Source: Pseudomonadota bacterium
GTDB taxonomy: Bacteria > Pseudomonadota > Alphaproteobacteria > SP197
NCBI GenBank assembly: GCA_039028155.1
Contig: JBCCIS010000003.1
Coordinates: 25,904 to 89,903 of the forward strand
Length of the DNA: 64,000 bases
Direction of reading: 5' to 3'
Made by a program: the position numbers and the translations under genes. Positions 14,414 to 51,617 of the stretch are shown here, one piece after another. Numbering within the stretch: the first letter of the stretch is position 1; each line of letters opens with the position of its first letter. Under the pieces are notes generated by a model. It did not search any database. It saw nothing but the letters and a program-made list of their open reading frames with translations, and was not told the origin of the DNA.

Positions 14414-14566
14414 ATGAGCAAGTTTTTCAAGAAGCATGATGCGAGCCACGCTCGCAACACGGACAAGTACGACCGGCGCGACCACGGCGGGTCGAACGGA
14501 TCGACCGTAACAAGCGCCCTGATCGAGACCGTCTGGAACCCATTCTTCGTGCTCGGCCGCCGCTAA
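14414..14566 (+). CDS. Small hypothetical protein (50 aa), absent from the ORF track
   Basis: Strong Shine-Dalgarno AAAGGAG 6 nt upstream of the ATG. GC3-biased codons throughout. Product MSKFFKKHDASHARNTDKYDRRDHGGSNGSTVTSALIETVWNPFFVLGRR. Confidence 0.45.
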   Translation: MSKFFKKHDASHARNTDKYDRRDHGGSNGSTVTSALIETVWNPFFVLGRR

Positions 14567-14589
14567 GGCGCCGCCAACCACCCCATCCT

Positions 14590-14800
14590 CATCCCGGCCA
14601 AGCACAGCGCGAGCCGGGATCCACGAACACGGTATCCGACGCGTTGGCCATGATCGCGCCAACGCGTCTTAGTGTGCGTTCTTGGCCCCTTGTGTGTTGC
14701 GGCAGTGCGATGATGGTCGCGGACGGAAGACCGTTCGGTACGTTTGCGAAAACCGCATCGACGCCGTGTGCACAGAGCGTGTCTTTCAGAACGCCCCGTG
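14590..14800 (-). pseudogene. Degenerate partial duplicate of the 3' end of the adjacent glycerophosphodiester phosphodiesterase gene
   Basis: The minus-strand translation ...VCRVTRGVLKDTLCAHGVDAVFANVPNG... parallels the GDPD C-terminus ...VVCYTVNDAAKAQSLFARGVDAVFTDVPDV. About 70% nucleotide identity over roughly 60 bp. There is no start codon, and an in-frame stop lies inside the neighbouring repeat. Confidence 0.5.
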
Positions 14801-14812
14801 TAACGCGGCATA

Positions 14813-14937
14813 CCCCCTCACCCTATTTCGGCTAGGGCGCTGGTGCGCCCAAGCCTGCGCATCCCTCTCCCTCAAGGGGCGAGGGAAACAAAAAAATGGA
14901 CCCCCTCTCCCCTTGAGGGAGAGGGCCGGGGTGAGGG
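14813..14937. repeat. Small TIR-bounded palindromic element (MITE/REP-like)
   Basis: Terminal inverted repeats CCCCCTCACCC / GGGGTGAGGGG. Internal hairpins TCCCTC-AAGGGGC-GAGGGA and CCCTCTCC-CCTTGA-GGAGAGGG. An A7 tract. A GC palindrome GCGCGCGGCGGCGCGCC follows. It lies between the GDPD gene and its truncated duplicate. Confidence 0.5.
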
Positions 14938-14964
14938 GTCGCGCGCGGCGGCGCGCCAGATAAC

Positions 14965-15702
14965 TTACCTTAGCACCGGTAGGATGACGTCAGGCACGTC
15001 CGTGAACACCGCATCGACACCGCGCGCGAAGAGCGACTGGGCTTTCGCCGCGTCGTTGACCGTGTAGCAGACGACCTGACGGCCGGCCGCCTTGACGGCG
15101 CGGATCTGTGCGTCCGTGACCTGACGTTCGGAGAAATGCACGGACATGCAGCCGAGGACGCGCGCACCTATCGACCATTGCCAGCGCGACCGGCGCCATA
15201 TATTCAGCCCGGTCGGCACGTCGGGCCGCGCCTGACGGAACCCCATCAGACAACGCAACACGAAGCTTGAGACCAGTGGCCTGGGACGACCGGGCGGCCA
15301 TGCCTTGTCCAATGTCGCGCCGACGACACGGCCGGTGCGCCAGGCTTCGCCGGGGTTCGTCTTGATCTCGATGTTGGGGCGCATGCCGAGGTCGTGGATG
15401 GCGTCGAGCGCGTCGATCAGGGTCAGGACCCTCTCGCCGGCAAAGCGCGGATCAAACCACGCGCCGGCATCCAGTCGTTTCAGTTCGTCAGCTGTCTTCG
15501 CCGCGACCGGCCCGGTGCCGTCAGTGGTGCGGTCCAACGTGTCGTCGTGCACCAGAACCGGCACGCCGTCCTTGGACAGGCGCACATCGAACTCAACCCA
15601 GTCCAGGCCGAACGCGGCCGCCGCCTTGAACCCGGCGAGTGTATTCTCCGGTGCATGGGCGGCGGCGCCCCGATGCCCGATGACACGCGGCAGGTCGATC
15701 AA
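14965..15702 (-). CDS. Glycerophosphodiester phosphodiesterase (GDPD/UgpQ family)
   Basis: VIGHRGAAAHAPENTLAGF...WVEFDVRLSKDGVPVLVHDDTLDRTTDG is the GDPD signature. Start is ambiguous. A TTG at 15702 lies 8 bp from the upstream gene stop and is preferred. The alternative ATG at 15792 would overlap the upstream gene by 82 bp. Confidence 0.7.
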   Translation of the reverse strand: MIDLPRVIGHRGAAAHAPENTLAGFKAAAAFGLDWVEFDVRLSKDGVPVLVHDDTLDRTTDGTGPVAAKTADELKRLDAGAWFDPRFAGERVLTLIDALDAIHDLGMRPNIEIKTNPGEAWRTGRVVGATLDKAWPPGRPRPLVSSFVLRCLMGFRQARPDVPTGLNIWRRSRWQWSIGARVLGCMSVHFSERQVTDAQIRAVKAAGRQVVCYTVNDAAKAQSLFARGVDAVFTDVPDVILPVLR

Positions 15703-15710
15703 TCGGCGCC

Positions 15711-16874
15711 TCAGGCGATCAGGGCGTCCTGGCCGCGCTTGGCCAGACTGTGGGCGATAATCATGCGTTGGATCTCCGAGGTGCCTTCCCAAATCCGATC
15801 GACGCGCAGTTCCCTATAATAGCGTTCGGCGACATTTTCACGCATGTAGCCGCGCCCGCCGAAAACTTGCACCGCGCGGTCGGCCACCCGGTTGGCCATC
15901 TCCGAGCAATAGAGCTTTGCCATGGAGCACATGGCGTGCTGCACCTTGACGTCCTCGCCATCGTCGATTGCCTGCGCCAGGCGGTAGACCATCAGGCGAC
16001 CGGCCCAAAGTTCCGTCACGCAGTCGGCAAGCGGAAACTGCACCGCCTGGTTCTCAAAGATCGGTTTGCCGAACTGGACACGCTCCTTGGCGAACGCCGT
16101 CGCCTCGTCGATCAGCCGGCTCGCCGCGCCGCAGCAGCGCGCCGCGATGCCCAACCGTTCCTGACGGAACCATTCATAGGTCCAGGTGATGCCGTTGCCT
16201 TCGGGATCGATCAGGTTGTCAGCGGGCACCTTAACGTCGGTGAACTGCATGATCAGGTGGTGCGAGGGATAGGTGTGGGTATAGGCCGGCGTTCTGACGG
16301 TCTCGACGCCGGGCGTATCCTTGTCCAGATAGAACAGCGCATGCGTGCCGTCCTCCAGCTTGGCCTGGAAGATAAGGATGTCGGCCCTGTTGGCGCCGGT
16401 GACATGCCACTTAAGGCCGTTCAGCACATAGCCGTTGCCCTGCTTCTTGGCCGTCGCCTCGATGGCGTCGACGTCGGACCCGGCGCCTTCTTCCGTGATC
16501 GCGTAGCACTCATTCTTCGCGCCGGACAAAAGGTCCTTCACGTAGTGCTCCATCTGATACTCGGTCGCGGTGTGCAGCAGGAACGGCGACATGTCGTGAT
16601 AGCACCAACCCAGCCCGTTCGTGGTGCGCCCGATCTCTTCCTGGATCACCGCAATCTCGATCATCGAGAGTTCGGCGCCGCCGTGTTCTTTCGGGATCGA
16701 CGGCATGAAGAGACCCATTTCCTTGGTCATCTGTTTGTGCTTGGCGCGCACGTCTTCGGGGATCTCGCCGTCGTTCATCTCGGCGTGCACTTCCCAGGGG
16801 ATGAGTTCGCTGTCGACAAAGGGCCGCAGTTTCTCCTGCCAGACGCGGGCGGACTCGGGCAGCGGATAGGACAT
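15711..16874 (-). CDS. Acyl-CoA dehydrogenase
   Basis: ACAD fold with a C-terminal YYRELRVDRIWEGTSEIQRMIIA motif. Start at the internal ATG with a GGAGCG RBS. The track ORF carries an unsupported 54-aa N-terminal extension. Confidence 0.85.
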   Translation of the reverse strand: MSYPLPESARVWQEKLRPFVDSELIPWEVHAEMNDGEIPEDVRAKHKQMTKEMGLFMPSIPKEHGGAELSMIEIAVIQEEIGRTTNGLGWCYHDMSPFLLHTATEYQMEHYVKDLLSGAKNECYAITEEGAGSDVDAIEATAKKQGNGYVLNGLKWHVTGANRADILIFQAKLEDGTHALFYLDKDTPGVETVRTPAYTHTYPSHHLIMQFTDVKVPADNLIDPEGNGITWTYEWFRQERLGIAARCCGAASRLIDEATAFAKERVQFGKPIFENQAVQFPLADCVTELWAGRLMVYRLAQAIDDGEDVKVQHAMCSMAKLYCSEMANRVADRAVQVFGGRGYMRENVAERYYRELRVDRIWEGTSEIQRMIIAHSLAKRGQDALIA

Positions 16875-20188: not shown

Positions 20189-20268
20189 CCGGTCCTCGCC
20201 TTTTACATTCTAACTGCCACGAAGACCCGGCGATCGAACCTATTGCCGGGTCCTGAGTGCGATTGTCG

Positions 20269-21540
20269 ATGCTAAGTACCGATCCCTATTGGTGGGAGGC
20301 GGCGGCGCCACAAACTTCGGATCAAACGCCGCCGCCTACCGCCGAGATTGCCATCGTCGGTTCCGGCTTTGCCGGGCTGTCGGCAGCGTTGACCTTGGCA
20401 CGCGGCGGCCGAAGCGTCGTTGTGTTGGACGCCGGCGCCATCGGCGGCGGCGCCAGTTCACGCAATGTTGGTTTTTTGGGCCACGAATTGCGCACGTCGC
20501 TGTCGCGCTTGACGGCACTGCACGGCCGATCGGAGGCGATCGAGATCGCGCGCGAGGGGATCGCCGCCCAGCGTTTTGCCATCCAGCGTATCAACGATGA
20601 AGCCATCGCGTGCGACCTCTGCGAACCCGGTCGTCTGGTTCCGGCTTGGCGCCCGTCCCATTACGGCGCCCTGGCCATCGATGCCGAGACCCAGTACCGC
20701 GCCTTCGGCATCGAGTTCGAGATGCTGGATGCCGATGCGCTGCGGCGCGAACTCGGCACAGACGCCTATTGCGGCGCCAAGCTGGTGCGCCGCTCCTTTG
20801 CGCTGCATCCCGGCAAGTTCGTCGCTGGCCTTGCCGAGCGCGCGGCGGATGCAGGGGCTGTTCTGGTCGACACCTGTCCGGTCGAGGCGATGGTCCCCGA
20901 CCACGATGGCGTGAAGCTCCACACCGCGCGCGGTCCCCTTCTTGCGCGTGAGGTTCTGGTCGCCACCAATGGCTACACGGGCCGACTGACCCCGGACCTT
21001 CGCCGCCGGCTGCTGCCCGTCGGCAGTTATGTTGCGGCGACGGAAGAACTCAGCCCCGAACGGATGGCGCGGATCTTGCCGACCGGCCGGGTCGGCGTCG
21101 ACACGCGGCATGTCTTTTCCGCTTTTCGCCCGTCACCGGATGGCAGCCGGCTGATCTTCGGCGGCCGCGCCTCGTTGCACAATCTGGACGCCCGCAGGGC
21201 CGCGACGATCCTGCGTCGCCAGATGGTGCGTCTGTTCCCCGACCTTGCCGATGTCGCGATAACCCACTCATGGAGCGGTTATGTCGCCTTCACGTTCGAC
21301 CGGCTGCCCCATTTGGGCCGCAAGGGTCGCGTTCGACACGTCATGGGATTCAACGGCGCCGGTGTCGGCATGGCGACCTATCTCGGTCACCGGGCGGCTC
21401 TATCGATCCTTGGCGGCAACGAGCCGGAAAGCATCTTCGAACGCCACGATTTTCCTACCCGCCGCTTCTACTCCGGCAACACGTGGTTTTTGCCGCTCGC
21501 CTTCGCCTATTACAAACTCAAGGATCGTTTCGCCCACTGA
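20269..21540 (+). CDS. FAD-dependent oxidoreductase, PuuB/OrdL (gamma-glutamylputrescine oxidase-like) family
   Basis: PYWWE N-terminal motif. Dinucleotide-binding IAIVGSGFAGLSAAL. C-terminal HSWSGYVAFTFDRLPHLG. Paralogous to the gene at 60876. Confidence 0.75.
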   Translation: MLSTDPYWWEAAAPQTSDQTPPPTAEIAIVGSGFAGLSAALTLARGGRSVVVLDAGAIGGGASSRNVGFLGHELRTSLSRLTALHGRSEAIEIAREGIAAQRFAIQRINDEAIACDLCEPGRLVPAWRPSHYGALAIDAETQYRAFGIEFEMLDADALRRELGTDAYCGAKLVRRSFALHPGKFVAGLAERAADAGAVLVDTCPVEAMVPDHDGVKLHTARGPLLAREVLVATNGYTGRLTPDLRRRLLPVGSYVAATEELSPERMARILPTGRVGVDTRHVFSAFRPSPDGSRLIFGGRASLHNLDARRAATILRRQMVRLFPDLADVAITHSWSGYVAFTFDRLPHLGRKGRVRHVMGFNGAGVGMATYLGHRAALSILGGNEPESIFERHDFPTRRFYSGNTWFLPLAFAYYKLKDRFAH

Positions 21541-21564
21541 TCAGCAGCAAGGGGACCGCAGACC

Positions 21565-22389
21565 ATGTTCTCATTCGAAGGCAAATGCGCCGTCGTGACC
21601 GGTGCGGGCCGCGGCATCGGCCGACAGATCGCGCTCAATCTCGCCGAGCTTGGTGCTGATCTGGTCCTTGCCTCACGCACCGAAGGCGAAATCCAGACGG
21701 TCGCCGGCGAGATCGAAGCGATGGGGCGGCGCGCCTGGCCGATCATCGCTGACATGGGCGACCTTGATCAGGCGCTTGGTCTTGTCGACCAGGCCATCGA
21801 CGCCATGGGCGCCATCGATGTCTGGATTAACAACGCCGGTGGCGGGAGCAGCGTCAAGGGCGGTGTCGGTCCGATCGAGGAGGCGACCGTCGAAGGATTC
21901 GACGCGATCTACCAGCTCAATGTCCGCGTTCCATTCTTCTGCGCGCGCAAGACGGCTGACCACATGGCAACGCGCGGTGGCGGCGCCGTGTTGAACATCG
22001 TCTCGATTGACGGTGTCTTCGCCGCGCCCGGTGAAGGCGTCTATGGATCGGCGAAGGCCGCTTTGATCAGCCTGACCGAAACCATGGCAATCGAATACGG
22101 CCGACACAACGTGCGCTTCAACGCGATCGCACCGGCGCTGATCGACACCAAGCTGGTCGAGCGCCACCTGAGATCCGACGAGGATCGCCAGACCCGTGCC
22201 TCGTTCTACCCGCTCAACCGGGTCGGCAAACCGCAAGACATCGCCGCTGCGGCGATCTACTTCTGCTCCGACGAAGCCGGTTGGACATCCGGCCAGACCC
22301 TGGTCGTTGCCGGCGGCAATCAGGCGACCAGCGATCTCTTCTTGTGGGTTCGCAAGCACAACCCGGTGCCGGAGAGCAGGAGGATGTAG
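21565..22389 (+). CDS. Short-chain dehydrogenase/reductase (SDR)
   Basis: TGAGRGIG Rossmann motif, NNAG, and the YGSAKAA catalytic Tyr-x3-Lys. Confidence 0.85.
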   Translation: MFSFEGKCAVVTGAGRGIGRQIALNLAELGADLVLASRTEGEIQTVAGEIEAMGRRAWPIIADMGDLDQALGLVDQAIDAMGAIDVWINNAGGGSSVKGGVGPIEEATVEGFDAIYQLNVRVPFFCARKTADHMATRGGGAVLNIVSIDGVFAAPGEGVYGSAKAALISLTETMAIEYGRHNVRFNAIAPALIDTKLVERHLRSDEDRQTRASFYPLNRVGKPQDIAAAAIYFCSDEAGWTSGQTLVVAGGNQATSDLFLWVRKHNPVPESRRM

Positions 22390-22530
22390 CCGGATCCCAT
22401 CGCGGCCGATGATTTTGGATGCGGCGAGGGCCGTGAACCTGCTATGGGGCGCGGACAGCATCATCTGTCGCCTCACTAGACAGCATCGCGCCCCGGGCGC
22501 CCGAACCACACCTTGCCAGGGATCACGCCC

Positions 22531-26423: not shown

Positions 26424-26639
26424 CTAGTCGAACGACTCCAGGTCCTCCGGCGTGGTTTCCATGGACGGCCAGCGCCAAAACGCCGCGACCCAGAACAGCA
26501 CGATGTTGGCGATAGGCACGTAGGCCAGCAGTCCCCACAACGGCGAGCGGCCCATCTTCTTCAATACCCAGAAGAACGGCAGGAAGAGGATGAGCCAAAA
26601 CATCAGCGTCCAATGGAGGATCGAGAGGACACCCATCAT
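26424..26639 (-). CDS. Small membrane protein (~71 aa, PLDc_N/DUF805-like motif), second gene of pair 1
   Basis: Internal start MMGVLSIL; contains WVLKKMGRSPLWGLLAYVPIANIVLFWVAAFWRWPS. Paralogous to the gene at 27878..28105. Confidence 0.6.
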   Translation of the reverse strand: MMGVLSILHWTLMFWLILFLPFFWVLKKMGRSPLWGLLAYVPIANIVLFWVAAFWRWPSMETTPEDLESFD

Positions 26640-26821
26640 GCGACCTCCCGCCGCCACGGCCGGTTCGCCAGAAGCAACAGCGCGATCGGCAGGCCGATGA
26701 TCGGTAGCAGCACGAAAAGGCTGAACGCCCATGAGGCGCCCGAACGCGCAAACATGATCGCGATCGGAATGCCAAACAGCACGTAGATGCTGATCATGTG
26801 AACAATCAGGAACAGCGACAT
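26636..26821 (-). CDS. Small membrane protein (61 aa), first gene of pair 1
   Basis: Two TM helices, MSLFLIVHMISIYVLFGIPIAIMFARSGASWAFSLFVLLPIIGLPIALLLL. Its stop overlaps the next start (ATGA). Paralogous to the gene at 28102..28299. Confidence 0.6.
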   Translation of the reverse strand: MSLFLIVHMISIYVLFGIPIAIMFARSGASWAFSLFVLLPIIGLPIALLLLANRPWRREVA

Positions 26822-27877: not shown

Positions 27878-28105
27878 CTAATCGAACTCGAGCGCGGTGT
27901 ACTGGTAGCCGTCGACCGACGGCCAGCGCCAGAAGGCGAAGACCCAGTACATAACGACGTTGACGAGGGGCACAAACAGCAGAACGCCCCACCACGGTGT
28001 GCGGCCCATCTTCTTCAAGACCCAGAAGAAGGGCAGAACGGGCAGCACAATAATGATCAACGCGACGACGATGAGCATGCCGCCAGCCATTGCGTCCGGA
28101 GTCAT
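27878..28105 (-). CDS. Small membrane protein (75 aa, PLDc_N/DUF805-like motif), second gene of pair 2
   Basis: PFFWVLKKMGRTPWWGVLLFVPLVNVVMYWVFAFWRWPS is nearly identical in pattern to pair 1. ATGA overlap with the upstream small gene. Confidence 0.6.
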   Translation of the reverse strand: MTPDAMAGGMLIVVALIIIVLPVLPFFWVLKKMGRTPWWGVLLFVPLVNVVMYWVFAFWRWPSVDGYQYTALEFD

Positions 28106-34163: not shown

Positions 34164-34522
34164 CCCGTTTCGGCTGTCGGACCCCGCCGCCGGCCTACCC
34201 TGTCGATCGTAGTAGAATCTTCGGTTCTTCCCCTAAGGTCTTGATTCAATATCGAATCTTGTGCGCTGCAGCATGAGTTTTCAGCGACTGGCAGGGTCAG
34301 TTTAGAGCTAGAACTCCTCAATCTGTAAATCTGACACCGCACAACGCCAGATAGCGAAGACCCCCCAAAGGATTAGCCCTAAAGAGTAGGTTCGAGGAGA
34401 ACGAGAGCGTTGCGTCTGTGCCGTTTTGGGACAGTCGCAAGTCGAGCAAGGCGCGATCGACTTCGTATCACAGTGAAACAGCCGGCAAGCCGGCACAGAG
34501 ACCAACGCGAGGATCCGAAACC

Positions 34523-35185
34523 ATGCAGGGTAACGTGGGTAACGACAGACACAGCTCCGAACGCGGCTTTACGCTGGTCGAGCTTTCCATCGTTCTTGTC
34601 ATCATCGGGCTTTTGATCGGCGCCGTCCTGAAGGGCCAGGAGTTGATCGAAAGCGCGCGGCTGAAGTCGCTGATGACGCAGATGAACAGCTACAAGACGG
34701 CGACCCAGATCTTCAAGGATCGTTATGGCTCGCTGCCCGGCGATTTCGACGAGGCGACGACCGTGCTGAACGCCTCGGCCAACGGCGACGGCGACGGCCT
34801 GATCGACGGCAACGGTGGCAACGGCGAAGGCCCGCTGTTTTTCGAGCATTTGGTTCGCGCTGAGCTGATCTCCGGTGTTTCGGTCAACGATCCCATCCCC
34901 GACAGCAAAGCCGGCAACGGCGAAGTCCAGGCCGACAACGACGACGTCAACCAGGGCTCGCAGGACACCAACTTCTTCCGCGCCGGCGGCCTGAACGGCG
35001 TCGCCAGCACCCGCGATATCCTGAGCGGCGCCCAGGCGGGCGAGCTGGACAACAATTTCGACGACGGCAGCGGTATCACGGGCGATATCCAGTCCGAGGG
35101 CGGCAATGACTGCCGCACCAATGCCGGCGTCCACAACTTCACCGATGGCGACGTCGCCTGCGTCTTCTTCGTGAAAATCGAATAG
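34523..35185 (+). CDS. Type IV prepilin / pseudopilin (class III signal peptide)
   Basis: MQGNVGNDRHSSERG|FTLVELSIVLVIIGLLIGAV is a prepilin peptidase cleavage motif (G/FTLxE) followed by a hydrophobic N-methylation helix. Gly/Asp-rich C-terminus with a Cys pair. RBS GAGGAT. Confidence 0.8.
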   Translation: MQGNVGNDRHSSERGFTLVELSIVLVIIGLLIGAVLKGQELIESARLKSLMTQMNSYKTATQIFKDRYGSLPGDFDEATTVLNASANGDGDGLIDGNGGNGEGPLFFEHLVRAELISGVSVNDPIPDSKAGNGEVQADNDDVNQGSQDTNFFRAGGLNGVASTRDILSGAQAGELDNNFDDGSGITGDIQSEGGNDCRTNAGVHNFTDGDVACVFFVKIE

Positions 35186-35235
35186 ACCGCACGACCATGG
35201 CGGATGACGGGCCAGCCGGCCCGAGCTGATCACCG

Positions 35236-35266
35236 TTAGGGGGAAGCGCCGCGCGCTTCCCCCTAA
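35236..35266 (+). terminator. Rho-independent terminator-like hairpin after pilin gene 1
   Basis: Perfect 14-bp inverted repeat TTAGGGGGAAGCGC/GCGCTTCCCCCTAA with a 3-nt loop, followed by TCGTTTG. It begins 50 bp after the pilin stop. Confidence 0.6.
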
Positions 35267-35543
35267 TCGTTTGAATCCGCTCTCCATCTAAGAATAGAGC
35301 AGATTCACCTGCCTTGAAGGCATCGCGTCGTGATGCGTTCAAGGCAGGATCTGCTCTTGCCGGCTGGCCCTTTCTTTTGCGCCGAAGACGCAGCTAGCAG
35401 GTTGCGCGGAGTCGCAAAAGAGTGCAGAATTACAAGCTGTTATCGGGGAGTCTGCGACTCAGACTCGAGATATCGGCGACAAGTCATTGAATGCCGAAAA
35501 ACCGGGGTTGGGCGATCGCTAAGGCGCGACGGAAGCTGATCAG

Positions 35544-46503: not shown

Positions 46504-47259
46504 ATGACGTCTGATTCAACACAGAATCCGTTCCAATCGACCGAAAAGGGCTTCACCCTGATCGAAATGGCGATTGTGATCGCCATTATCGGCGTTTTGG
46601 TCGCCATGTTGGCGCCGATGCTGGGCAATATCGCGGAAAACAACCGAACGGAACTGACCGTTCAGCGCATGGACCAAATCGAGAACGCCATGGTCGTTTT
46701 CCTGCGCCAGAACGGCCGCCTGCCATGTCCGGCCGCCCCCAACGGCGCGCCCCTAGGCGATGAACGCGCCAGCTGCAACACCGGCAACAACAACGACGGT
46801 ATCGTGCCGTTCCGCAGTCTTGGGCTGGCCGAGGCCGACGTGCGCGACGGCTACGGCAACTATTACACCTATCATGTCGCCGAGGACTACGCCGACAGCA
46901 GTTTGCCCACGGTGATGACCGATCCCGGCGGCTTCTGTTTCGTCGCCTCCGGCGAGCCGAACGGCGATCTGGATATCGAAGACATCAACGGCACCAACGT
47001 GACCGGCCAGGACATCGCCTTCACGCTGATCAGCCATGGCAAGAACGGTTATGGCCGATACGACCCGCCGGGCAACGGCAAGGTCAACGCCAATGGCGGC
47101 GGCACCTTCGAGGACGAGAACAACGATTCCGACGCCGACTTCGTCGACGGCATCCGTCTAACCGACGATGCGACGGACGGCCCGCTCGATGACGCGGTCA
47201 TCTGGAAAACGCGCGACGGGCTGGCCGGCCAGGCCATTGAGTTCGGCTGTTCGCCGTAG
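46504..47259 (+). CDS. Type IV prepilin (class III signal; large 251-aa pilin, candidate major subunit)
   Basis: MTSDSTQNPFQSTEKG|FTLIEMAIVIAIIGVLVAMLAP is a leader plus N-methyl-Phe helix. C-terminal Cys pair (C...GCSP). Confidence 0.8.
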   Translation: MTSDSTQNPFQSTEKGFTLIEMAIVIAIIGVLVAMLAPMLGNIAENNRTELTVQRMDQIENAMVVFLRQNGRLPCPAAPNGAPLGDERASCNTGNNNDGIVPFRSLGLAEADVRDGYGNYYTYHVAEDYADSSLPTVMTDPGGFCFVASGEPNGDLDIEDINGTNVTGQDIAFTLISHGKNGYGRYDPPGNGKVNANGGGTFEDENNDSDADFVDGIRLTDDATDGPLDDAVIWKTRDGLAGQAIEFGCSP

Positions 47260-47379
47260 CCATAACTAGGCTTACTGAACCCACAACTTGCCAGTGCTCG
47301 AACTCAACCATAGGGTGTTGGGCAAGAGTTGCGGAGTCTACCCTTCGCTACGTTGAAGACAGCATTACGATATCATCTC

Positions 47380-47892
47380 ATGGAAACACCAGAGTTCAAC
47401 CTAAAGAACCGTGTCGCGCCGTTAGGGCGTTGGTATGAACACTTGGTCTATTTCTTTATCGCGAGTTTTTTCTTTGCTGTTTGGACATACTGGGTCGCCG
47501 GAAAATACCATCCATACTATGTACTAGATACTTTGGGGCATGCCGTTTGGTCGCTTCTAGCTTTCTATTTATCCAATAAAATCTTACTAATCGTTTATCG
47601 ACACTTAAACTTTGCAATCGCTTTCTGTGCATACTACATTATCGCGCTTATCATATTTGTTACGATAAGCGTATCAATTATAGCGATGAGGTCTCTGGAA
47701 GGAAACGAAGCGCTAAAATTTGACGGAATATGGATCTATCACTATGGGTTTATTACTTGGGAAGGTTTCATATGGGAGGTCAAGTACTTCTCAAGAAACT
47801 TCATTCCGCTGTTTTTGGCAAACCTAGCTTCAATCTTACTGCTACGATTAATCTACAAACTTCTAAGTTGCCGATTTGTACGCGGTGGGTAG
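47380..47892 (+). CDS. Hypothetical polytopic membrane protein encoded in an AT-rich (~42% GC) island
   Basis: The ORF (TTG at 47329, first ATG at 47380) encodes four or five hydrophobic helices. It is rich in Phe, Tyr, Ile and Lys, with AT-rich codons unlike the host genome. Confidence 0.5.
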   Translation: METPEFNLKNRVAPLGRWYEHLVYFFIASFFFAVWTYWVAGKYHPYYVLDTLGHAVWSLLAFYLSNKILLIVYRHLNFAIAFCAYYIIALIIFVTISVSIIAMRSLEGNEALKFDGIWIYHYGFITWEGFIWEVKYFSRNFIPLFLANLASILLLRLIYKLLSCRFVRGG

Positions 47893-47962
47893 TGGCTTAA
47901 GCACTCTCCGACGCCAGTGCATCAACATGTACAGACGACCTCTTTCAACCCGATCTTCTTCG

Positions 47963-48013
47963 AACTCGTGACGACCTAGCCGGCCTGGCGATCGAGTTCG
48001 GCTGTTCGCCCTA
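47963..48013 (+). repeat. Imperfect direct repeat of the last ~17 codons of pilin gene 2 (relic 3' end), bounding the AT-rich insert
   Basis: CGTGACGACCTAGCCGGCCTGGCGATCGAGTTCGGCTGTTCGCCCTAG matches ACGCGCGACGGGCTGGCCGGCCAGGCCATTGAGTTCGGCTGTTCGCCGTAG at 47208-47259 (about 38/45 identities over the central alignable 45 nt). The two translate as RDDLAGLAIEFGCSP* and RDGLAGQAIEFGCSP*. Confidence 0.6.
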
Positions 48014-48026
48014 GGGTAGGCCGGCT

Positions 48027-49439
48027 CTAGACCGCGTTCGTCCCTTCGTTCCAGCTTTGCAGCTTGCGGTAGACGGTCGACGGACTGATCTCCAGCAGCG
48101 CGGCGGCGCGTGGCACGTTGCCCTCGCTTAGACGCAGAGCTGCTTCGATCGCCTCGCGTTCGACCTCGTGCAGCGGACGGATATCGACGTCCGTCAAATC
48201 ACCAGGTGCGGCATCGGCCCTGCGTTTGCGCAAGGGATCGTTGGCCGGCTGCGGCAGCCCGGCCGAGCCGTCCAGTGGAGGCGGCAGCATCTCGCGCGTC
48301 ACGACCTCGCCGGTGTTCAAGACTACCACGTTACGGATGATGTTCTGCAATTCCCTGACATTGCCCGGCCATGAATAGGCACGGAAGAGATCGCGCACGC
48401 TGGCGTCCAACCGCGCGAACGGTTTGCTTTCCTGGCGCGCGAACTCACGCAGGAAGTTTTCGGCAATGTCGATGACGTCGTCGTCACGCCGGTTGAGCGG
48501 CGGCAGGTGAATCGGAATGACATGCAGGCGGTAATAGAGGTCGGCGCGGAACCGGCCGCTCTCGACCTCCTTCAAGGGATTGCGGTTGGTCGCGCAGACA
48601 AAACGCACATCGACCCGCTCCGACCGGCTTGAGCCGACCTGCTGGAACGTTCCGGTTTGCACGAAACGCAACAGCTTGGCCTGCAGCGCCGGCGCCATGT
48701 CGCAGATCTCGTCCAGGAACAGCGTGCCGCCATCGGTCAAGGTCGCCGCGCCGTCGCGATTGGAAACCGCGCCCGTAAACGCGCCTTTCACATGGCCGAA
48801 CAGCTCGCTCTCCAGAAGGTCGCGCGGTATTGCCGCGCAATTGAGCGCCATGAACGGCCCGTCGGAGCGCTCACTTAGATGGTGAATCGCCTCGGCGCAC
48901 AGCTCCTTGCCGGTGCCGCTCTCACCGGTAATGAAGATCGATGCCTGACTGGGCGCGGCGCTTTGAATGGTCGCGTAGACGCTTTGCATCTCCATCGACG
49001 AACCGATGAAGCCGGCGAAGGAGCTGTGTCGTGTCTCGCTCGTCATGCCGTCGACCAGACGCTGCAGTTCGCGCCGCTCCAGCGCGTTGCGCAACGTGAC
49101 GATCAGGCGTTCTTGGCTGAACGGTTTGACCAGGAAATCGTACGCGCCGTCGCGCATCGCCTCGACCGCCGCGCTGACCGAGCCGTGGGCGGTGATGATG
49201 ACGACGGGGCACGGCAACTGGCGTTGCTTGATCCAGCGCAAGATTTCCAAGCCATCGATGTCGGGCAGTCTGAGATCGAGAAGGACCGCGTCCGGCGCCT
49301 GTTTGTCGATTGACGAAAACGCCGCCTCGCCGGTTTCGACGTGTTCAACGGAGACGGGCTCGAAGCGCAAGTACTCCTTGTAGACACGCGCCAAGGGTGG
49401 CGTGTCTTCGACCAGAAGCACTGTCTGCTGACGGTTCAT
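48027..49439 (-). CDS. Sigma-54-dependent response regulator (NtrC/PilR family: REC + AAA+ + Fis HTH)
   Basis: Receiver domain ([14 protein letters not shown]...[16 protein letters not shown]). GESGTGKE Walker A. The GAFTGA sigma54-contact motif. C-terminal HTH. RBS GGAGG before the ATG at 49439. Confidence 0.9.
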
Positions 49440-50502: not shown

Positions 50503-50939
50503 ACGGGTTGGGGCGATGGACAAAGGTCCTGGGCGTCGTGCTCGTCGTGTCGCTGGCGTTCAACTTTTTCCTGATCGGCTGGATGGGCGCGCGATGGGTC
50601 TATGACCAGCACATGGGCCCGAAGTTCTCCGTGACGCGCCTGGTGCACGACCTGCCCGACGAGCAGCGCGAAGCCGTCTTGGCGGTTTTCGAGAACAACC
50701 GCGACAAGGTCCACGAAGCCATGGACAGCCTGCGCGACGCCCGTCACGCGGTATCGGACGTCATGCTGGCGGAGCCGTTCGATGCGGAAGCCGCCGCGGC
50801 CGCGCTCGCCGAACTCAGACGCCAAAGCACCACCATGCAGGAGACCATGCACGCCGCGCTTCTGGAGGCGGCGGTCAACCTGCCGCCTGAAACCCGCGTC
50901 GACCTCGGCCGCTTTGCCACCATGCCCCGCGCGCGGTAG
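50499..50939 (+). CDS. Periplasmic helical protein, Spy/CpxP (LTXXQ)-like, putative
   Basis: Signal-anchor followed by a helical region with LxDEQ/LPPETR motifs. Co-operonic with the ECF sigma and anti-sigma genes. Confidence 0.4.
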   Translation: MNGLGRWTKVLGVVLVVSLAFNFFLIGWMGARWVYDQHMGPKFSVTRLVHDLPDEQREAVLAVFENNRDKVHEAMDSLRDARHAVSDVMLAEPFDAEAAAAALAELRRQSTTMQETMHAALLEAAVNLPPETRVDLGRFATMPRAR

Positions 50940-50973
50940 GACGGCTTCGTACGCTTGCCAAAGCAGGTCGAAG

Positions 50974-51597
50974 ATCAAACGGCTCGCACACTACTTTGTC
51001 ACCGATATCGAGAGCGACGGGCCTTCGCCCCTAGACAACTCGATGCTCAGCTTCGCGACCGTCGTCGTGCGCGAAGATGGTGAGATTTGCGGCACGTTCG
51101 AAGCAGTCCTCGAGCCCCGACCTGATAAACAGCCGAATCACCAGACCATGACCTTCTGGCGGTCTCAGCCGGAAGCGTGGAAAGCCGCAACAGCGGATCC
51201 GCAGCCGCCGCGGGAGGTCATGACAGCATTTGCCGACTGGGTTGAGAGCTTTGATGGTCCGCGCTCGTTTGCAGCACGGCCTCTCGCCTTTGACGGAAGC
51301 TGGATCGATGCCTACCTGCGGGAGTACACCGACACCTACCTCCTAGACGTTCCCTATTGGGGACGATGCATCTTCACGTCGGGTGCACTCGATATTGGCT
51401 CCTACATCTCCGGCGTTTTCAATCGAACCGATCCCCACGGCGACATCGACATTCCGAAGGCATGGCTTGGTGAACACGAACACACCCATCGTGCCATCGA
51501 TGACGCGCGCGGATACGCCGCGCTTCTTAGTCGCCTGCTGCGGGTTGCGTCACGCCAACCATCCCACCCCGACGACTTCCTTCCTGACCGTCGCTAA
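50974..51597 (+). CDS. DEDDh 3'-5' exonuclease (DnaQ/RNase T-like); start codon uncertain
   Basis: Exo I FVTDIESDG, Exo II FDGSWIDAYL, Exo III HRAIDDARGYAALL. No ATG or GTG lies between the upstream stop and Exo I. The candidates are an in-frame ATC at 50974 (KIKRLAHYF) or a TTG at 50914. Confidence 0.55.
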   Translation: MKRLAHYFVTDIESDGPSPLDNSMLSFATVVVREDGEICGTFEAVLEPRPDKQPNHQTMTFWRSQPEAWKAATADPQPPREVMTAFADWVESFDGPRSFAARPLAFDGSWIDAYLREYTDTYLLDVPYWGRCIFTSGALDIGSYISGVFNRTDPHGDIDIPKAWLGEHEHTHRAIDDARGYAALLSRLLRVASRQPSHPDDFLPDRR

Positions 51598-51617
51598 TCG
51601 GGTGAGTCCTTGACTGG

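Follow-up and report, generated by a model that had tools for sequence, protein, structure and literature searches.

A palindromic element and a decayed gene end downstream of a GDPD gene

The DNA analysed here is a 64-kb window, one stretch of the genome of a Pseudomonadota bacterium (contig JBCCIS010000003.1), and all coordinates below are window positions. On its minus strand lies a gene for glycerophosphodiester phosphodiesterase (GDPD), which is followed by a palindromic element of 127 bp (14813-14939, beginning 25 nt beyond the GDPD stop codon) and then by a degenerate duplicate of the 3' end of the gene itself. Judged by its pattern, the element is a head-to-head inverted pair of BoxC/PIT/TM_ECO intrastrand-triplex motifs (hereafter BoxC/TM) and not a new miniature inverted-repeat transposable element (MITE). 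In the direction of GDPD transcription, the features of the locus, compared with the sister loci L001, L002 and L003 described below, are as follows.

14965-15708, minus strand: GDPD gene (Pfam PF03009), 247 codons according to the gene calls of the sisters; the open frame runs on to a TTG at 15792
14981-15069, minus strand: functional copy F of the duplicated 3'-terminal segment (...YTVNDAAKAQSLFARGVDAVFTDVPDVIL), 76% identical to the relic and 87-92% to the sister genes
14965-14973, minus strand: last two codons (Leu-Arg) and TAA stop, from inserted DNA, replacing the ancestral AEIT* or VPTP*; homology to L002 stops at 14974 and to L003 at 14978
14940-14964, no strand: insert spacer of 25 nt with a small G+C-rich palindrome, GCGCGC-GGCG-GCGCGC (from sequence and fold), not in the sister loci
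14903-14939, plus strand: right BoxC/TM unit, type B, CCCTCTCCC-CTTGA-GGGAGAGGG-CCG-GGGTGAGGG-G, the sole exact match to the TM_ECO pattern in the window
14886-14902, minus strand: central spacer; the minus (GDPD) strand has GGTCCATTTTTTTGTTT here, so that the proximal hairpin is followed by a T-run and the site resembles a terminator (from the terminator scan)
14813-14885, minus strand: left BoxC/TM unit, oppositely oriented, CCCTCGCCC-CTTGA-GGGAGAGGG, a 39-nt loop 2 with a hairpin at 14830-14855, and GGGTGAGGGGG (from the pattern with a 30-45-nt gap and from the fold)
14807-14812, no strand: short junction between the motif pair and the relic, about 6-9 nt (from the alignment boundaries)
14725-14806, minus strand: relic R, in which the GDPD 3' end recurs in decayed form (...RVTRGVLKDTLCAHGVDAVFANVPNGLP..), frameshifted and with 4-5 indels; it aligns collinearly with the 3' end of the sister genes
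14693-14724, minus strand: decayed ancestral last codons, stop and small downstream hairpin (CCCCGGAcTTaATCCGGGG in the sisters); the alignments of R with L002 and L003 continue into shared intergenic DNA
14567-14692, no strand: ancestral intergenic DNA, 80% identical to the sisters, with a conserved hairpin at 14621-14685, outside the insertion

The element is bounded by terminal inverted repeats, CCCCCTCACCC (14813-14823) and GGGGTGAGGGG (14929-14939), which are complementary at 10 of 11 positions or form a perfect 10-mer at a one-base offset. Two inner arms of 23 nt, 14863-14885 (CCCTCTCCCTCAAGGGGCGAGGG, the arm of hairpin A on the plus strand) and 14903-14925 (CCCTCTCCCCTTGAGGGAGAGGG, that of hairpin B), are 96% complementary. 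The plus-strand order is the outer arm CCCCCTCACCC, a 39-nt stretch, hairpin A, an A-rich spacer of 17 nt, hairpin B, CCG and the outer arm GGGGTGAGGGG, and a third, small hairpin (14830-14855) lies inside the 39-nt stretch. Folded as single-stranded DNA with Watson-Crick pairing only, the element region reached -56.5 kcal/mol, compared with -33.1 ± 3.1 kcal/mol for shuffled sequences (z = -7.5; 0 of 200 shuffles as stable). No Pfam-supported open reading frame (ORF) crosses the element, which sits between the GDPD stop (14965) and the non-functional relic, and the whole window matched no Rfam family at gathering thresholds.

An initial annotation of this DNA had described a structured palindromic element of about 125 bp directly 3' of the GDPD gene, with 11-bp terminal inverted repeats and two internal hairpins, followed by a degenerate copy of about 35 codons of the GDPD C-terminus. 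The element and its position are as described, and the terminal repeats are present, although one of their 11 positions is not complementary and the fold gives three hairpins. The copy is also genuine but shorter than proposed, with about 18 clear codons, or up to about 29 if a frameshift is allowed. Part of the span assigned to these features (14590-14965) belongs to neither, because 14590-14724 is ancestral intergenic DNA shared with the sisters.

The relic is a genuine duplicate of the GDPD 3' end

The GDPD gene matches Pfam PF03009 over profile positions 1-243 of 244 (E = 3.4e-50), and its stop codon occupies 14965-14967. Local alignment of its 3' end with the DNA beyond the element scored 38 over 55 columns, about 8.5 standard deviations above shuffles (17.8 ± 2.4, maximum 27). 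The two GDPD 3' ends, 14725-14806 and 14981-15069, could be aligned with gaps over about 82-89 nt with 60 matches, 19 mismatches and 13 gap columns, an identity of 76% that is far from chance level, and they include a direct repeat (14732-14779 and 14988-15035, 75% identity) at an offset of 256. Where the relic reads ...LCAHGVDAVFANVPNGLP..., the gene reads ...LFARGVDAVFTDVPDVILP..., and the corresponding translations are ..LKDTLCAHGVDAVFANVPNGLPSATII.. and ..AQSLFARGVDAVFTDVPDVILPVLR*. The relic is a degenerate duplicate of the GDPD 3' end.

No element or relic at the sister loci

The GDPD proteins closest to that of the window are P0001 (87% identity) and P0002 (84%), each of 247 aa, which are encoded on contigs L003 and L001/L002, respectively; L002 belongs to a genome of 5.5 Mb. 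Weaker protein matches came from Azospirillaceae/Rhodospirillales, and a metagenome scan for close GDPD relatives yielded none that could be confirmed. The three sister loci, about 33 kb of DNA in all, are syntenic with the window, carrying genes for acyl-CoA dehydrogenase (ACAD) and GDPD, a conserved 50-aa ORF, and MetE-like and GST genes. In the window, the 50-aa ORF (14414-14566, plus strand) has no Pfam family and shows 90% nucleotide identity without indels to a sister genome; it probably represents a genuine small gene that converges on GDPD.

We found that the distance from the GDPD stop to this ORF is 148 bp in the sisters and 398 bp in the window, so that the locus differs by about 250 bp between flanks that are collinear at 80-90%. 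Alignment revealed neither the motif element nor the relic at L001, L002 or L003, and no second GDPD fragment there; the insertion and the duplication were therefore gained in the window. The net gain is about 171 bp of new DNA (14807-14980) plus a target duplication of about 88 bp, a total of about 256-260 bp that agrees with the offset of the direct repeat. In the inserted segment, the 127-bp motif pair is preceded by a 35-nt leader and followed by about 9 nt; no ORF and no integrase or recombinase gene lies in it.

The two junctions were located by comparison with the sisters. The functional end of the window gene tracks the sister genes to ...ILPV (14974-14978) and then diverges, ending in LR* where the sisters have AEIT* or VPTP*; inserted DNA therefore supplies its last two codons and stop. 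In the relic, collinearity with the sisters runs through the 3' coding end, the position of the stop and the small downstream hairpin, and on into the intergenic DNA (80% identical). Nucleotide identity between the window GDPD gene and the sister genes is 82-83% gene-wide and 87-92% over the duplicated part, and sliding identity shows no break; the functional 3' end is orthologous and not imported.

The element belongs to the BoxC/PIT/TM_ECO motif family

The motif has been named BoxC (1990s, Bachellier et al.), PIT element (2000, Hoyne et al.) and TM_ECO (Holder et al. 2015) (PMC4666352), and also the 'G-quadruplex-hairpin-duplex switch' (bioRxiv 10.1101/032615). The TM_ECO pattern is 5'-CCCTCNCCC N3-6 GGGNGAGGG N3 GGGNGAGGG-3', with loop 2 of type A (TTA) or type B (CCG), and inverted pairs of such units have been described (PMC4666352). 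TM_ECO motifs were reported to form a triplex in vitro, with none detectable in vivo; no promoter or terminator activity, linked mobility gene or transposase was found for them, and they are gained and lost between close strains (PMC4666352). They are strongly associated with local rearrangement, with raised variability nearby, for which breaks or slippage have been suggested (PMC4666352). The motif is a non-coding intergenic repeat, known from E. coli and many other bacteria, that folds into hairpins or cruciforms, and its G-rich third segment can form a triplex or a quadruplex in vitro.

The only match to this pattern in the window is at 14903-14937, where shuffled sequences predict 0, and its loop 2 is CCG, hence type B. 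In the left unit, read as the reverse complement of 14813-14885, all three segments are present and 39 nt replace the 3-nt loop 2, so that only the right unit is canonical. Loop-2 variants with an extra small hairpin recur in Tistlia (L020), Sphingomonas (L021) and Stellaceae (L072, 40 nt), and in L091, L046, L050, L056 and L057; the left unit of the window is a member of this long-loop-2 variant class. The same head-to-head layout is found in the wzc-wcaA intergenic region of E. coli 14EC033, which reads CCCCTCACCC-CGG-hairpin, a 16-nt spacer and hairpin-TTA-GGGTGAGGGG, and the motif core was matched in 4234 of 5426 complete E. coli genomes. Because only the 36-nt core is shared with the other loci fetched, the conserved unit is the motif and not a mobile element of 125 bp.

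The 2015 survey listed 262 proteobacterial genomes and reported no phage or plasmid association (PMC4666352). A paired-hairpin scan with one genome per species returned at least 120 stretches from many phyla, among them, by genome label, Bacteroidota, Chloroflexota, Planctomycetota, Acidobacteriota, Verrucomicrobia, Cyanobacteria, Armatimonadota, Nitrospirae and others (L005-L124). The range of paired triplex motifs thus extends far beyond the genomes of that survey, and many alphaproteobacterial copies carry the extra loop-2 hairpin. The canonical pattern was also observed on at least 120 predicted viral contigs (IMG/VR; loci L132-L211), which may include host DNA, and on large plasmids or chromids of Azospirillum, Enterobacter, Deinococcus, Vitreoscilla, Sphingomonas and Mitsuaria (H1-H8).

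To compare flanking sequences, the 200 nt to the left of each of 125 motif elements from the fetched loci (120 genome loci) were aligned with the 200 nt to the right, and 615 position-shifted sites served as controls. Flanking direct repeats with a score of at least 30 occurred at 3 of the 125 elements and at 17 of the 615 controls. The three high scorers were the locus of the window itself and L052 and L123, which are tandem arrays of larger units; a long flanking duplication was not found at the 122 other elements. An insertion signature was also sought at polymorphic E. coli loci, but none was readable, since the pair form at wzc-wcaA occurs in only 6 genomes and alx-sstT has no clean empty site. 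The alx-sstT intergenic region exists as three alleles (L129/L130/L131), namely a tail-to-tail motif pair in K-12, a single hairpin in EC08, left by deletion between two CCCTCTCCC arms, and an unrelated filler of about 400 bp in REL606.

Age, conservation and a putative terminator

Copies F and R differ at 24% of aligned sites, and the window differs from either sister at 35-37% of third-codon positions. The event is old, and if the relic decays neutrally its date would be roughly that of the split from the sisters. Nevertheless, the two motif units have kept all 54 bases that the pattern defines. For a pair of the same age as the duplication, the chance of 54 intact bases at 20% neutral change per site would be 0.8^54, or about 6e-6. 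Such intactness beside a relic that has diverged by 24% indicates that the pair has either been conserved, by selection or homogenisation, or arrived after the duplication.

On the minus strand, the proximal hairpin (14925-14903) is followed by the tail GGTCCATTTTTTT, in which a T-run begins 2-6 nt past the stem. This hairpin and its T-run (GGTCCATTTTTTTGTTT) may now end the GDPD transcript as a putative terminator.

A similar arrangement at a pilin gene

The initial annotation had also pointed to the same succession of functional end, insert and relic end at a pilin gene, and this geometry was indeed found at 47208-48029. The last 52 nt of the pilin gene (46504-47259) and about 10 nt past its stop recur at 47963-48029 with 83% identity, scoring 59 compared with 18.7 ± 2.2 for shuffles. 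About 640-700 bp (about 47270-47962) lie between the copies, with a G+C content of 37-42% against 63% for the window, and contain an ORF (47329-47892) for a hydrophobic protein of 187 aa with no Pfam family and no detected homologue. The pilin insert shows no inverted repeats, triplex motif, integrase or att-like conserved core, and the GDPD insert is likewise without integrase and att-like core. In a sister genome the pilin stop is 12 nt from the stop of a convergent sigma-54 regulator gene, with no insert, and the relic in the window ends 12 nt from the regulator stop; the window and sister pilin genes show few aligned differences along their length.

The pilin and GDPD sites thus have the same geometry, both between convergent genes, and unrelated cargo. 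A recurring mechanism, as had been proposed for the two, gains from this recurrence of the geometry, but not from the cargo, from flanking repeats that are no commoner at motifs than at controls, or from two other insertions without repeats; a shared mechanism is unproven. These two further window-specific insertions relative to the sister, at 20189-22517 (about 2.3 kb) and 50930-51617 (about 0.6 kb), have no flanking direct repeat. It is conceivable, though in our judgement doubtful, that an undescribed process in this lineage inserts small DNA at the abutting 3' ends of convergent genes, duplicating about 70-120 bp while both genes survive, with the BoxC/TM pair at GDPD and a low-G+C ORFan cassette at the pilin gene as its products. 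Were this true, the GDPD site would offer the first clean comparison of a filled and an empty site for the acquisition of a BoxC/TM pair, and its decayed relic would act as a neutral clock, against which the motif would be seen to be under active conservation.

A further candidate relic, the window's strongest local direct repeat (26464/27918), was rejected, as it is a pair of paralogous small genes. These genes (26424-26732 and 27878-28105, both on the minus strand) encode small membrane proteins (..FFWVLKKMGRxPxWG..), share 119 nt at 79% and lie around an ArsR-like/SRPBCC-like gene pair. Downstream of the first pilin-like gene (34520-35185) there is a nest of inverted repeats (35158-35393), one arm of which is an inverted, not direct, copy of the last 19 nt of that gene (79% complementary).

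Origin of the insertion

We consider it somewhat better than even (about 0.55) that the BoxC/TM pair arrived within an insertion of about 171 bp, through a single illegitimate event that duplicated about 88 bp. After the split from the three sister genomes, the segment would have entered the GDPD gene four codons before its stop, and about 88 bp of the target would have been duplicated in the same event. The upstream copy would have stayed joined to the gene, which now ends in Leu-Arg-stop from the insert, and the downstream copy would have stayed with the old stop codon and the intergenic DNA and then decayed. Such an event, which we do not take for transposition, may have been a staggered break repaired by fill-in, or template switching during replication at a structure-forming sequence, and the structure-prone motif may have been its trigger or merely its cargo.

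Several observations weigh against this account. The element is single-copy in the window and absent from the sister DNA, and beyond the 36-nt core no part of the 171-bp insert (39-nt loop, spacer or flanks) matches any of the more than 120 fetched loci, and no donor copy was found. Long flanking duplications are not a general signature of BoxC/TM motifs, and as they are atypical, the motif may be a passenger and not the cause. An intact motif beside a decayed relic could also mean that the pair arrived later, in a second step. As for the terminator, the scan gave 2 sites, both here on the minus strand, where 0.9 were expected, with a weak match to the consensus, and PIT elements in E. coli showed no terminator activity in earlier work (PMC4666352).

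Later arrival is the core of an explanation by two independent steps, a short tandem duplication of the GDPD 3' end and the subsequent entry of the BoxC/TM pair between the copies. A pristine motif pair next to a relic with 24% divergence and several indels would fit a younger motif, and gain and loss of such motifs between close strains is on record (PMC4666352). However, a tandem duplication of 88 bp, a length not divisible by three, inside the last codons would put the C-terminus out of frame until rescued, two rare events would be needed at exactly the same junction, and no intermediate was seen among the three sister loci; we hold this sequence of events to be quite improbable. Integration of the Campbell or att-site type is unlikely too, but to a lesser degree. 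A small DNA circle bearing a look-alike of the GDPD 3' end, possibly left over from an integrative element, would have recombined with the gene in one crossover close to the 3' boundary of the homology, and its cargo would later have shrunk to about 171 bp, so that the 5' part of the relic would be donor DNA that was never identical to the gene. The geometry is, by established knowledge, that made by integrative elements targeting 3' ends, it occurs twice in 64 kb with different cargo, and the upstream part of the relic is far more divergent and indel-rich than its core, an asymmetry also present in the pilin relic. Yet neither insert has an integrase, other coding capacity or an att-like conserved core, no related donor sequence was found in the fetched loci, the functional ends are fully orthologous to those of the sisters, and uneven decay over less than 90 nt can be explained by chance. 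Homology-facilitated capture, which had been put forward initially and would here have brought in a foreign GDPD end, is likewise not favoured, as the functional end is as sister-like as the rest of the gene and the relic is collinear with the native end in the sisters.

The proposal that the element is a mobile sequence of the MITE type or of the REP (repetitive extragenic palindromic) type, transposing into gene 3' ends with partial duplication as part of its insertion, is largely refuted, and little probability attaches to it. Terminal inverted repeats, a length of about 127 bp, a strong fold and presence here but not in the sisters are what it would predict. But the flanks of the element, ...GCGGCATA and TCGCGCGC..., abutting it with ...ACGCGGCATA| and |TCGCGCGCGG, have no repeat in common, so that there is no short target-site duplication at the ends; other DNA, 35 nt on one side and about 9 nt on the other, separates the duplicated segments themselves from the element. 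Furthermore, the copies have no more in common than the 36-nt core, those elsewhere lack flanking duplications, and no transposase is associated with the motif in the literature (PMC4666352). Finally, the likeness of the relic to the gene might have been due to chance, or the relic might have been a piece of an unrelated, paralogous GDPD gene, given that the GVDAVFTD motif is conserved across the family and that a G+C-rich genome inflates background similarity. The height of the nucleotide alignment above shuffles, the collinearity of the relic into the native stop region and intergenic DNA of the sisters, and the absence of a second GDPD fragment there refute this, and we give it almost no weight.

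Significance of the locus

BoxC/PIT/TM motifs have been known for about thirty years and, to our knowledge, neither their function nor their means of spread has been established. The GDPD locus provides a dated filled-versus-empty comparison outside the enterics, in which the pair came in a 171-bp insertion that rewrote the last codons and the stop of a gene. If the pair is coeval with the duplication, the intact motif beside the decayed relic argues for maintenance by selection or homogenisation. The locus is also a warning to annotators that BoxC/TM motifs can create pseudo-duplicates of gene ends.

Comparison with known systems

The arrangement resembles the attL/attR duplications of 3'-end-targeting integrative elements in its succession of functional end, insert and relic end and in keeping the gene intact, but the insert is only 171 bp without integrase, and the functional end is native rather than element-borne. 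With bacterial MITEs such as Correia, ERIC and RUP, the element shares its size (about 130 bp), strong folding, terminal inverted repeats, insertion near genes and perhaps the ability to supply terminators. It differs from them in having no short fixed target duplication, in the conservation of a 36-nt core instead of full-length copies, and in lacking a known parent insertion sequence. In REPs, a GTAG-like tetranucleotide is conserved at the 5' end, and they are found around a gene for RAYT, a Y1 transposase. Like REP/REPIN sequences, which are mobilised by RAYT, the element consists of two inverted hairpin units and a spacer, and both are intergenic and often at gene 3' ends; unlike them, the units of the window show no visible GTAG-type motif and have a core of three segments (C-arm, G-arm and second G-arm). 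A RAYT gene was not evident in the window, in which no screen aimed at RAYT was made.

The initial reading as a MITE/REP element thus gives way to a BoxC/PIT/TM_ECO pair without short target-site duplication, of which only the 36-nt core is shared with other loci. For these motifs we know of nothing that mobilises them. The element is a further member of this long-described repeat family, and the duplication of the gene end has left a real and rather unusual scar, with no evidence for a new kind of element. The pair departs from known ones, which combine type A and type B, in combining a type B unit with a long-loop unit, and its host is a Rhodospirillales-like alphaproteobacterium with one pair in 64 kb. 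The insertion also overlaps the last codons of a gene, gives it a stop codon and has a flanking duplication of about 88 bp, a feature unreported for the family. What the window pair shares with the BoxC/PIT/TM_ECO family is the exact pattern of the right unit, the inverted pairing with a short spacer, the intergenic position, the lack of an associated mobility gene, and a locus that is rearranged relative to close relatives.

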